Shown: positions 14,801 through 19,065, counted from the stretch's first letter. The stretch is DNA of 64,000 bases from Dictyostelium discoideum (GCA_000004695.1 CM000150.2:640001-704000), one strand, 5' to 3'. Notes: generated from the sequence alone by a model not told the origin. Numbers and translations: made by a program.

Positions 14801-17800
14801 TATTCATTGATGTTGAAAGATCAATTCAATCATTATCCATTGATCAGTTTAGAGTAATAATAATGAATGAAAAATATAACAATCCAAAATCAAAAGGTCT
14901 ATTTAGAATGATACTATTTATATTATCATATAAATTCTATTTAGGTAATTCAGCTCAACAAACCCAATTGTTAATTTCTATTGTTATAGATGATACAATT
15001 TCAAACTATCTATCAATGTCGCCATATTTAGATTGTTACCTTAAAATTTTGCAAGCTAACTTCAATGATCAATATCATATCGATAAAATATTAAAAACAC
15101 CAGTAAACGAACAAAAAGCCCAAAGCGTCATTATTATTAATTTTATTGCTCTATCAATTGGTTCAGATTCAACTCATTTATCATTATTCCTACGTTCAAA
15201 ACAACCAAATGATCCAATTGATCCATTGTTAGTTAATATTGGAATAAGTAAAACATTCCCACCTGGAGTTGCATTAATTGATTGTAATGTTAAAACTGTT
15301 AATGGTATGACAAGAAATTTAGATTTCAACATATTAGTATCATCAACATGGTGTGTTATTGCTTTTGCATGTTCAGTTAGAAATTTACCATACTCCTATT
15401 TCACAAGTGATCTCCATTTCATTAATGTACCACAAGATTACGATAATTCATCAGATTATACATTCGCAAGAGGTTTAAATTCGATTTTAGAAATTGAAAT
15501 TGATAAATCCTTATCATCATCTTTAATTGAGCCATATACTTTCATTTCATTCATTACATTTAGAATCTGGTCAGAATCATATAATCCAACAAGCCAAATG
15601 ATCTCAAGTTATAATGCAACAAATGTTAAAACCTATACAACTAAAATCAATGAAATTATTGCATCTATTAAAAATGATTTTAATCAATATAAATTAAAAA
15701 TCAACAACCAAATTTGCCAATCCTCAATTCAATATGAAAATCTTTTCAATATTCGTCAATTATATTCAAAAACCAATCAATCATTATTATTAACAAATGA
15801 ACAAATTCAAGGAATGATTGCATCAAAAGATGATGGCTATTCACCAATTAAAAAGTTTATAGCAGAAATTGATAATATTTGTTTGTCAAAATATTTCCTT
15901 ACAATCATAAAATTCTTGGATTTATTTTATAAACTTTTTTCAAATAAATTACCAGAAGAGTATTCAGTTAAATCAGTTTTGGATTGTGTAGACTATTTAA
16001 TTGAAAATAAATTCGAAACTGAAGAATCAACTGCTGAACTTTTAGTTGTTTATGATCAATTAATTGAATGCTGGATAACAATAAAAGAAAAATATTCAAT
16101 TGATGTTTGTCAGAGAGCATTGAATGTTGAAAAAATTATTCCAGATATTATTAGAGATGAAACTCCAATTATTACATTAATTTCTGATGGAAAATCAATT
16201 GGTTGGTTAAAAAATGTAATCGATAAATGGTTAGAAAATACTCAAGGTGCACTTGTCAATTCATGTTTAACCAATGATAAATTATCACCAGTTATAAAAT
16301 CAATTATGGAATCCTTTGCAAATGATAATGCTAACAAAATTGATATAGCTAATATTCCATTAGGTATTGTCGATGAAAATGTATTATTAGGTTCAACTTA
16401 TTCACCAGATGATTTTTATCAATATTGTCAATTACAAATTTCAAAGTATTTCTCATATGATAAAAATGAATATGAAGAGAATATTAATTGGGATTCAATT
16501 TTTAATAATTTAACCATTTCATTCATTTATGGTAAAGTTATTCAAAATCAATTACAAGCTTATAATAATTTCTCATATCTTCAATCAATTGGTGGAACAA
16601 ATGATCCAGAATTGTTAAATTCAACCAATACATTATCTGAACCAGAATTTATTAAAGAATTAAAAGATATTGTATTGAAAGTTTCAAAACTAATAAGAAG
16701 CAGAGATGATTTGGAAAGAAGTATTGAAATTAGATTAAGAACTAAATGTAAATCAAAATTGAACCAATATCAATTAGAAGCAATTGGTAGATACTTAATT
16801 GGTTTATTCATTAAAATTAATAATTGTGATGATGTTGCTCAAATTAGTGAATCAATACTTGTTGATTACTATCCAGTAGATGAATCAATTAAATTAGATC
16901 AAAGTATTAGAGAAATTTTACCACATGTCAGAATTAAACAATCAATAGCTTTTGCTAAAATATTCATTAGTACTTATTCAGGATTTAGATATTATTATTC
17001 AAATATTATGGCAGATCCAGTTGAAACAAATCCAAGATTTTATGAACAAATTCAACTTATTAAAGATAAAATATTAAAAGAATGTGATGAATCATCCATT
17101 CAATTAAATGGTGAGAAAAAGATTTCAAAGGTTGAATTGAACAAAATTAAAATTATTAAAATTAATTCATGGATTGAATATTTAACCCAAGTTATACAAA
17201 TTATTTGCAGCACTGATTCAAAGAAATATATTAGTCATTCACAACCAGATCATAGATTAATTAAATTATTTGTAAAACTATCATTAAATGAAAAACCATC
17301 ACCAAGTGATAAATTTAATATTTTCAAAGAAGTTAAAGAAGAAACTCCATTTAATTATTTCGCAATTTTTATGGGTATTTTACAAGATACATTATCACAT
17401 CTTTATATTAAATTAGATAGTAAAGAAACTACAAATAATAAAATTGTGGAATTCCAAGAACTTACCGAAAAGGATTTAGAGAATATAATTGTAAAAAAAT
17501 TACCACCACCAAAGAAAACCAAAACCAGACCAAACAAAAACAAAAAAATCATTAATCATGATCAAGTAAAAATAGAAGCAGCCGTAATTCAACGTGAAGA
17601 ATTTGTTACCAAAGATGTTGTACTCAAGGAACCTGAAGAAGAAAAAGAAAACAATGAAGAAATTGAAGAATCATTATCAATTGGTAGAAAATTAATATCA
17701 AAAGGTCCTAAATTCTTAGTTAGCATTTTCAATTTAATCAGATTCAATAAATTGGACCAAATATTAAAAATCAATGACCCAAGTTCAACTCTTTATTTCC

Positions 17801-18171
17801 ATGTTGAAGACTTTAAAAGAGAAATTAATGAAAAATCAAAAACTCCATTCAATATAGATCCATTCTTTGAAATACTTAAAGAACATAGTTCAGAATTAAA
17901 AAAAGCCGTTCATGATGATGATTCCTGTACACCATATAATGTTCTTTACCAAATTTTACATATTTTTAATTCTGATAATAAAGGTTCAACAATCGCAAAT
18001 GATTTATTCGATGGTAAAACTAAATATGTATGCACAAATTGTAACCAACCAACAAAAGAATCAATTAAAATTAATTTTAATTTTAACTTTAATGTCGAAG
18101 AAATTTCACTTGAAGATGATATAATTTCAAATATATTCCAAGGTTTAGAATTTTCTGGTTTTCAAAAGTAA
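2853..18171 (+). CDS. Giant AAA+ ATPase-like protein, exons 1-3: 2853..4069, 4195..4821, 4923..18167(18171). It has an N-rich N-terminus and two dynein/MoxR-type P-loop modules.
   Basis: ATG at 2853 in an aaaATGg context. The track's start at 2835 is a TTG. Exon 1 ends at a GTAAGT donor (4070-4075) in phase 2, and the AG acceptor is at 4193-4194. Exon 2 is 4195-4821, followed by donor GTAAGT (4822-4827) and acceptor AG (4921-4922). Exon 3 begins at 4923 and flows without a stop into track ORF 5119..18171. All phases are consistent. First module: Walker A GDTGVGKT (8955-8978), Walker B MVVFIDEFN, and a sensor-1-like WVGAMNP. Second module: Walker A GPPGCSKT (10306-10329), Walker B CVVFIDEAG, and ILSNKILDAAITNR. 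Confidence 0.75.
3178..3345 (+). repeat. (AACTCA)n hexanucleotide repeat in coding sequence, encoding an (NS)n dipeptide array of about 27 units in exon 1 of the giant gene.
   Basis: aactcaaactcaaattcaaactca... with occasional T/C variants. Confidence 0.85.
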
Positions 18172-18243
18172 CTATAAAATTAATTAACTATAATATATTA
18201 AAAGCTATAATTGTTTACTAATTTTTTCAATTGTTATTAATAG

Positions 18244-18436
18244 ATGTAATAAATGTAAAAGAGATACACCTCATAGTAAATATTTAGTAACTTCACCAGA
18301 TTGTTTGGTTATTGAATTAAATAGAAACTATGATAATGCTGTCTCTTATCGTAGATTCCATAATCCAATTGAAATTATAATTGGTGATGTTTTTTATAAA
18401 AATTGTGATATTAAATATACCCATCATTCAACAATC
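18244..18436 (+). CDS. Probable exon 4 of the giant gene. It encodes the second CxxC pair and LxIxLxR strand of a USP-fold zinc ribbon.
   Basis: The apparent stop at 18169-71 overlaps a GTAACT donor (18168) in phase 2, and the AG acceptor at 18242-43 restores frame. That gives 64 stop-free codons in AT-rich DNA: KCNKCKRDTPHSKYLVTSPDCLVIELNRNYDNAVSYRRFHNPIEIIIGDVFYKNCDIKYTHHSTI. This pairs with CTNC in exon 3 as the C-x2-C...C-x2-C USP zinc-ribbon pattern. The exon ends at a GTAAGT donor (18437). Confidence 0.5.
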
Positions 18437-18522
18437 GTAAGTTTAGAAAGAAAAAAAAATAAATTTAAAAAAATAAATTAATATTAACAACTTGTTTTAT
18501 TAAAAATTTAAATTTTAAAAAG

Positions 18523-19065
18523 ATGATTGATAATTCAATTAATATTAGTACAGGCAATATGAATGAAAGTAAAAAAATCAAATCCACAGCTGATTCATGT
18601 TTCTCTTATATCGATAAAGATGAATGTTATAAAGAAGAACAATTAACATCACATTTATTAATTTATAAAAAATCCAATTTAGATACTCCAGGTGATGATC
18701 AAGATGAAAATCAAAATGGTGATGGTGATGATGACAAAGGTAATAATTCAACTTTAGAAATTGATGATAATGATGATAATACTAAAAATAACAACAATAT
18801 TGTAATTCCACCATTGGATTTTTCAAACTCATGTGGATTAACAAAAGATGATGTCATTAAATATCATAATGATAAATTTTTTGTTTGGGTCAATACATTA
18901 CCGTTAAATCCAGTGCATTTGGTTGAAATGATTGATGGTTTATCGGAGCAACTAATTGTAAAGTTTGATGACGCTTTCGGTTTAGATGATGATGGTTGGA
19001 ATAATGTAATCCCAATATTTAAAATTAGAAAAATATTTTTAGATTATTTGAATAAATTTAATTAA
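18523..19065 (+). CDS. Probable exon 5 and C-terminus of the giant gene (acidic tail). Alternatively it is an independent 180-aa acidic-protein gene.
   Basis: A phase-0 donor at 18437 and an acceptor AG at 18521-22 join in frame to track ORF 18523..19065, which reads MIDNSINIS...DDQDENQNGDGDDDKG...LDYLNKFN. The ATG at 18523 also has a good aaaagATGa start context, so an independent gene cannot be excluded. Confidence 0.4.
   Translation: MIDNSINISTGNMNESKKIKSTADSCFSYIDKDECYKEEQLTSHLLIYKKSNLDTPGDDQDENQNGDGDDDKGNNSTLEIDDNDDNTKNNNNIVIPPLDFSNSCGLTKDDVIKYHNDKFFVWVNTLPLNPVHLVEMIDGLSEQLIVKFDDAFGLDDDGWNNVIPIFKIRKIFLDYLNKFN

Follow-up and report, generated by a model that had tools for sequence, protein, structure and literature searches.

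RNF213 (mysterin), a giant E3 ligase of animals with a dynein-like AAA+ core, is a major factor of cell-autonomous immunity and the main gene of Moyamoya disease. Little has been written on its ancient evolution. In the ubiquitin-specific proteases (USPs, peptidase family C19), the nucleophile is carried by a Cys box (G-N-T-C-Y/F-x-N-S), and the QQD box follows about 70-85 residues later. The pseudo-USP domains of PAN2 (USP52) and USP39/Sad1 derive from USPs; they no longer have the catalytic residues and serve as scaffold or binding modules inside larger machines. We analysed 64,000 nucleotides of Dictyostelium discoideum (GCA_000004695.1 CM000150.2:640001-704000), hereafter the 64-kb window, whose positions serve as coordinates throughout. 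A giant gene on its + strand, with five exons in a sequence-based model built on reading frames and GT...AG boundaries, would encode a protein of 5,292 residues with an RNF213-like AAA+ motor. Near the C-terminus of this protein, residues 4883-5164 probably represent a degenerate USP of the zinc-ribbon type, in which the catalytic Cys and His have been lost.

This USP-like module (282 residues) is spread over three exons, at positions 17671..18167 (residues 4883-5048), 18244..18436 (residues 5048-5112) and 18523..18678 (residues 5113-5164), all on the + strand, as are all the features of the gene given below. It resembles the zinc-ribbon USPs (such as USP8, USP15 and USP11) by the order and spacing of its landmarks, i.e. 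a QQD-box helix, F-x-G, a first CxxC, an sL..cL helix, a second CxxC, an lP.vL.i.L.R strand, a V.FP-like loop, a Y.L.-strand, a W..F.D-like motif and a terminal hydrophobic strand. In exon 3, the QQD-box-like stretch DDDSCTPYNVLYQILHIF (17914-17967, residues 4964-4981) precedes LFDGKTKYVCTNC (LFDG...CTNC, 18004-18042), of which CTNC occupies 18031-18042 (residues 5003-5006). The same part of the module contains ISLEDDIISNIFQGLEFSGFQ(K), and the 3' end of exon 3 encodes ...LFDGKTKYVCTNCNQPTKESIKINF, including CTNC. Exon 4, encoding (K)CNKCKRDTPHSKYLVTSPDCLVIELNRNY..., carries the second CxxC (CNKC, 18245-18256, residues 5049-5052), followed by the equivalent of the KRF strand (SPDCLVIELNRNY, 18293-18331); it further encodes RFHNPIEIIIGD and ends in IKYTHHSTI (18410-18436). 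The first 52 residues of exon 5 (MIDNSINISTGNMNESKKIKSTADSCFSYIDKDECYKEEQLTSHLLIYKKSN) look like the remaining USP palm, with the position of the His box, a W..F.D-like motif (CFSYIDKD, 18598-18621, residues 5138-5145) and a terminal AYiLFY-like strand (SHLLIYKK, 18649-18672).

The distances between these landmarks are close to those of known USPs. The two CxxC motifs are 46 residues apart (48-51 in USP8 and USP15), 26 residues separate the second one from the Arg of the KRF strand (27 in USP8 and USP15), and the Asp of the QQD-like box lies about 30 residues before F-x-G, as in USP7 (about 30). From the 4,594 residues of the giant protein that were scanned, CTNC and CNKC are the only CxxC motifs. 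The arrangement of USP fingers, two CxxC motifs followed by a strand of the lP.vL.ihLkRF type (SPDCLVIELNRNY), is thus present at the sequence level, and zinc binding is predicted. A length of 282 residues makes it one of the shorter USP-like cores, and its likeness to USPs is one of sequence.

We then compared the module with protein families. Among 24,736 Pfam families, PF00443 (UCH) was the best for the 282 residues (E=1.1e-3, 19.1 bits). Its alignment covers module residues 41-211 (171 residues) and profile positions 47-175 of 254, beginning in the QQD-box region, taking in the two CxxC motifs and ending shortly after the KRF strand. UCH was also the top family (E=1.3e-3, 18.8 bits) for the orthologue of a close relative, locus L001 of Dictyostelium cf. 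discoideum. The UCH match of the D. discoideum module was seen only after trimming the low-complexity flanks, the untrimmed C-terminus (487 residues) giving no UCH match in Pfam. In addition, hhalign was used to align a three-member family alignment (A5) with a profile made of a typed consensus, USP8 and USP15; the real sequences of USP8, USP15, USP7 and USP14 were taken from the outputs of PDB searches. The score was 28.6 (P=0.003), with module residues 105-194 on USP positions 113-213, the first CxxC on the first, the second on the second, and PDCLVIELNR on the lP.vLiihLkR strand. In a column-shuffle control (mean 14.1, standard deviation 2.5, maximum 24.2), none of 400 shuffles reached this score (Gumbel P~3e-4). 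When the profile was enlarged with USP7 and USP14, which have no zinc cysteines, the score was 21.6 and was reached by 2 of 300 shuffles. Searching the PDB with A5 (hmmsearch) returned three matches only, including USP11, in the same register. Another register, with the second CxxC on the first CxxC of USPs, had been given by a three-sequence USP hidden Markov model and by hhalign with two close sequences; it was rejected because about 75 residues would have to be missing and because it vanishes once the sequence of a more divergent homologue (locus L004, see below) is added.

Several results weigh against USP ancestry. The UCH score of 19.1 bits is below the gathering cut-off (23.9 bits), and the parts of the UCH profile that hold the Cys box and the His box are unaligned. 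The module of L004 alone gave no UCH match in Pfam. The HH probability of the hhalign comparison is only about 10%, and masking the four cysteines, which supply about one third of the score, lowers it from 28.6 to 19-22, close to the highest values of the null distribution, with the register unchanged. The E-value of the USP11 match in the PDB is 1.1. When 1.84 billion representative proteins were searched exhaustively with HMMER, only P0001-P0004 came back, with three relatives and no USP among them. Finally, AlphaFold2 was run on P0001, the annotated protein of L001, with an alignment of seven rows and an annotated model 20 residues short; no usable fold model of the module was obtained (mean predicted local distance difference test score, pLDDT, 31.6; predicted template modelling score 0.21). 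Besides, phmmer and hmmsearch with the module gave nothing significant among PDB sequences, screening of metagenomes with A5 yielded no match, and two of three homologue searches returned almost nothing, seemingly swamped by low-complexity words.

These sub-threshold statistics, the share of the score due to the cysteines and the lack of a fold model are what would be expected from a chance resemblance, the module being a lineage-specific zinc ribbon or another non-USP fold whose CxxC pair and AT-rich composition produce the matches. Short zinc-ribbon families (DUF7835, DUF7836 and Sgf11) also touch the CxxC motifs, but they match over 9-19 residues only, against 171 for UCH. Moreover, three methods give one register, which survives the masking of the cysteines, at least seven landmarks are spaced as in real USPs, and the divergent L004 sequence matches USP7 in the strand of the His box. 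We consider a chance resemblance possible but rather unlikely, and the USP ancestry of residues 4883-5164 probable. The original prediction, which had recognised a USP-like domain, is partly upheld, in that UCH is the top family and its register was reproduced; the profile check falls short of it in that the score is below the cut-off and the profile is only partly aligned.

We then searched the module for the catalytic residues of USPs. The stretch equivalent to the Cys box, GRKLISKGPKFLVSIFNLI (17683-17739), contains no Cys, and neither does the longer stretch SKGPKFLVSIFNLIRFNKLDQIL (17683-17760). The closest positional match to G-N-T-C in the module is G-P-K-F. Residues 4729-4967 are devoid of Cys, the nearest one upstream of C4968 being C4728, 240 residues away, and the N-terminal part of the module is likewise without cysteine in L001 and L004. 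As for the His box, in the register of USP7 some 16 residues separate the Y.L strand from the catalytic His (G-H-Y), whereas the window has Y5106 and then ...NISTGNM, with no His in residues 5110-5155. In the register obtained from the USP7 and USP8 sequences and from the alignment to L004, the equivalent of the His box in the third part of the module is MIDNSINISTGNM, which has no His. The strand after KRF reads Y-T-H-H-S-T-I-M-I-D-N-S-I-N-I-S-T, with Thr (or an Asn nearby) at the position of the catalytic His. The module thus has GPKF where USPs have the GNTC of the Cys box, and NISTGN in place of ssGHY. A candidate for the third catalytic residue, which in USPs is an Asp or Asn of the W..F.D motif, is D5143 of CFSYIDKD, about 21 residues past the His position, in a part that no significant alignment covers.

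The four stretches quoted in the original prediction (LFDGKTKYVCTNC, CNKC...SPDCLVIELNRNY at 18245-18331, GRKLISKGPKFLVSIFNLI and IKYTHHSTI) are real and lie where it had placed them. Its claim of a Cys box without Cys agrees with the Cys-free residues 4729-4967. Its claim of a lost His box holds for the missing His, but not for the acidic tail that it had put right after IKYTHHSTI: exon 5 first adds the 52 residues MIDNSINISTGNMNESKKIKSTADSCFSYIDKDECYKEEQLTSHLLIYKKSN, and only then comes the linker. The splice isoform with intact Cys and His boxes that it had named as able to overturn its view was not found either, as the 64-kb window contains no alternative exon supplying one of these boxes. 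Furthermore, neither Cys-box nor His-box motifs occur in any of the six frames of the whole window, and the two 3' introns leave no room for alternative exons, being 76 and 86 bp long with 9-13% GC. With no nucleophilic Cys, no catalytic His and no alternative exon, the module, if it is a USP, is catalytically dead.

Some USPs once deemed inactive were later reported to be active, and C4968, H5108 and H5109 are present in the module, which could in principle still be a protease or isopeptidase through non-canonical residues or residues brought by another isoform or subunit. We regard this as highly improbable, given the absence of Cys from the 240 residues that precede the QQD-like box, where the nucleophile helix would have to lie, the lack of the two motifs in every frame of the window and the size of the introns. 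In addition, C4968 was rejected as a nucleophile, since it lies 27 residues before F-x-G, within the QQD-box helix, and H5108 and H5109 occupy strand positions that are non-catalytic in USP7.

Then, we investigated the conservation of the module in related amoebae. L001 (GCA_054859235.1) is an orthologue of the giant gene with 93% nucleotide identity, and the amino-acid identity of the module between D. discoideum and L001 is 85%. The ratio of non-synonymous to synonymous substitution rates (dN/dS) is 0.24 in the AAA core, 0.19 in the region preceding the module, 0.38 in the USP-like module and 1.37 in the last 90 residues, the rest of the gene outside the module showing values of 0.19-0.28; the indel errors of the assemblies compared may inflate dN, which also counts against our interpretation. 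From its dN/dS of 0.38, the module is constrained, more loosely than the motor, and is under moderate purifying selection.

The assembly of L001 is itself peculiar. Some 16 insertions of 1-2 bp, all outside homopolymers, are found at positions ~6480-11100 of this locus (orthologous to 13512-18131 of the window), over the last 40% of the gene towards its 3' end. The preceding 6.5 kb contain a single one, and the annotation is split into three genes. Because removing the insertions leaves no stops and dN/dS values of 0.09-0.4, an assembly artefact is more likely than a pseudogene with 16 frameshifting insertions, which was rejected. One of these insertions explains that the annotated P0001 lacks LEDDIISNIFQGLEFSGFQK (20 residues).

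A more distant relative of the module was found in another dictyostelid assembly (GCA_054883475.1), where P0004 corresponds to the locus L004 (8600-10901). This small stand-alone gene encodes a USP-like and SAM-like module, collinear with that of the giant protein and 31% identical to it. It adjoins a gene encoding a PI3-kinase and is located 7.8 kb downstream of an E2 gene (UQ_con). All four cysteines are kept, as FCTVC and FCKNC, the latter across an in-frame stop. The sequence continues with IPSHLLISIDRV, ISIGDF, LHSIIMSNGEKSSIHIN and ILIIYKNK (across a frameshift), before the same terminal domain. In L004, the strand after KRF is N-Q-L-H-S-I-I-M-S-N-G-E-K-S-S-I-H, which matches L2, H3, G10 and H16 after the Y.L position of USP7 (YILHAVLVHSGDNHGGHY), including the position of the catalytic His. 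The string SGHISY of L004 was rejected as a His box, as it aligns to the W..F.D motif.

The module could also descend from a USP and be devoid of any binding or regulatory role, as a relic eroding at the end of the gene. Its faster evolution relative to the AAA core and the preceding region, its identity of only 85%, the change of residues at the His-box position between close species (TGNM vs. TDDI), the in-frame stop and frameshift of L004 and the fact that homologues are undetectable beyond close relatives are consistent with such an erosion. Nevertheless, the dN/dS of the module is well under 1, its frame is open over three exons, both splice sites are conserved, and a homologue of 31% identity retains all four zinc cysteines along with many positions of the hydrophobic core. 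The stop and frameshift of L004 may also be assembly errors, like the spurious insertions of L001. We therefore hold a functionless relic to be unlikely.

Under the interpretation that we favour, a non-catalytic module of USP descent, the catalytic domain of an ancestral zinc-ribbon-type USP would have degenerated at the C-terminus of an RNF213-like protein. It would have kept the thumb end (QQD-box helix), the main strands of the palm and the fingers, including the four cysteines of the zinc ribbon. Gone would be its nucleophile (Cys) and its general base (His), and with them the cleavage of ubiquitin. A charged linker at 17494..17670 (residues 4824-4882, KKLPPPKKTKTRPNK...EEKENNEEIEE), free of Cys and predicted from its composition to be disordered, precedes the module and would tether it to the AAA body; an Asp/Asn-rich acidic linker of 40 residues (18679..18798, residues 5165-5204) and a SAM-like domain follow. 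The module would persist, and probably act, as a binding or scaffold unit, in the way that PAN2 and USP39/Sad1 do. Its most plausible role, and the obvious candidate, is the binding of ubiquitin or of a ubiquitin-like protein, which would be held by the fingers. The module has no detectable sequence relationship to PAN2 and USP39/Sad1. Their hosts are a deadenylase and a spliceosome factor, whereas here the host is an RNF213-like AAA+ protein, the zinc ribbon is kept and a SAM-like domain comes after it.

The terminal SAM-like domain (18799..19065) is helical and has 88 residues, followed by the stop codon. It has no match to Pfam SAM, its model is of only medium confidence (pLDDT 64), and Foldseek found nothing significant. 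It evolves very fast, as indicated by the dN/dS of 1.37 relative to the close relative. This domain and the rest of the palm in exon 5 had been overlooked in the original prediction.

As for the host, the only domains that Pfam detected in it are of the AAA P-loop type (AAA and AAA_7). A segment of about 890 residues (9388..12057, residues 2122-3011) aligns by phmmer with the human and mouse RNF213 chains of the PDB at E=1e-45, so the giant AAA+ ATPase announced by the original prediction is correct and can be specified as RNF213-like. Two pairs of Walker motifs were identified. The first, GDTGVGKT (8956..8979, residues 1978-1985) with VVFIDEFN (9457-9480), would correspond to AAA3 of RNF213, judging from its spacing. 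The second, GPPGCSKT (10306..10329, residues 2428-2435) with VVFIDEAG (10534-10557), falls within the aligned segment, at the position of AAA4. The giant protein thus shares with RNF213 its size (~5,200-5,300 residues) and an alignable, dynein-like AAA core with two modules competent for Walker A/B, at the presumed AAA3 position and at that of AAA4. The search for homologues with this core returned just seven fragmentary RNF213-like proteins, and no USP was found downstream on the two contigs that carry such fragments (L002 and L003).

The two proteins differ in their ubiquitin-handling parts. The RZ finger of RNF213 binds zinc through C4505, H4509, C4525 and C4528, with C4516 and H4537 as catalytic residues (PMC11549300). 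The RING and this RZ finger (C-x3-H...C-x2-C plus Cys and His; PMC11549300) are absent from the Dictyostelium protein: in the 4,594 residues scanned, neither a RING pattern nor an RZ finger was found, the latter with strict and loose regular expressions, and Pfam gave no RING match. Residues 3099-4825 had no match in the PDB by phmmer at E<=0.01, i.e. no sequence similarity to the E3 module or to the C-terminal domain of RNF213. The latter is a bilobal helical domain without a USP-like part (PMC7311170), while the C-terminus of the Dictyostelium protein is made of the USP-like module and the SAM-like domain. With no RING, no RZ-finger pattern and no similarity to the E3 module, the giant protein may not work as an RNF213-type E3 ligase. 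In the literature, we found no description of non-animal homologues of RNF213, nor of a USP-like domain in RNF213.

A bolder proposal, which we put forward as speculative and unlikely, is that dictyostelids have rebuilt RNF213, keeping the AAA motor and replacing RING and RZ by dead USP fingers reading ubiquitin or a ubiquitin-like protein, together with a SAM-like polymerisation domain. The product would be no E3 but an ATP-driven ubiquitin-binding coat or remodeller, with damaged vacuoles or ubiquitinated bacteria as examples of its targets. Since Dictyostelium is amenable to genetics and a standard host of Mycobacterium and Legionella, a role in xenophagy or in a ubiquitin coat could be tested directly. 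If the favoured interpretation holds, the architecture described here would be a pseudo-deubiquitinase in a setting previously unseen, the combination of a pseudo-USP with an RNF213-like AAA+ protein being new, and would indicate that the RNF213 motor can couple to differing ubiquitin-handling ends. This significance is to be read with moderate support for USP ancestry and a function deduced throughout.

In the complete gene model, the four introns have a length of 71-101 bp and a GC content of 9-13%, in a window that is AT-rich as a whole (~22% GC). Exon 1 (2853..4069) starts with the ATG at 2853, encodes chiefly a low-complexity N-terminus of poly-Asn/Ser and ends at a GTAAGT donor at 4070. 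Nearly pure poly-Asn and Asn/Ser repeats make up the first ~330 residues of the protein (2853-3850), and upstream of the start codon poly(A) extends over at least 50 nt (2780-2829). Exon 2 (4141..4821) lies between an AG acceptor (4139-4140) and a GTAAGT donor (4822), with a continuous frame. Exon 3 (4923..18167) is a single uninterrupted open reading frame of 13.2 kb coding for the N-arm, the RNF213-like AAA core, a region of 1,800 residues and the basic/acidic linker, and then for the 166 residues with which the USP-like module begins. Intron 3 (18168..18243, 76 bp, GTAACT...TAATAG, 13% GC) would lead to an immediate stop if retained (TAA at 18169-18171), and the orthologous DNA of L001 contains indels, as expected for an intron. 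It is followed by exon 4 (18244..18436), intron 4 (18437..18522, 86 bp, GTAAGT...AAAAAG, 9% GC) and exon 5 (18523..19065), which holds the last 52 residues of the module, the acidic linker, the terminal domain and the stop codon. Retention of either 3' intron would truncate the protein.

Finally, we looked at the neighbouring genes. A zinc-type alcohol dehydrogenase (19396-20665, - strand) is encoded downstream of the giant gene and also follows it in L001, so synteny is conserved between the two loci. Further downstream lies a gene for a protein of the CAP/cysteine-rich secretory family (34079-34981, + strand). A homologue of spatacsin (SPG11) of 3,242 residues is encoded by one exon at 43639-53367 on the - strand (Pfam Spatacsin_C, E=6e-102). 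An open reading frame of 592 codons (55658-57436, + strand) carries a C-terminal RING finger (zf-RING_2, E=1e-9), and is a gene of the ubiquitin system unrelated to the giant gene.

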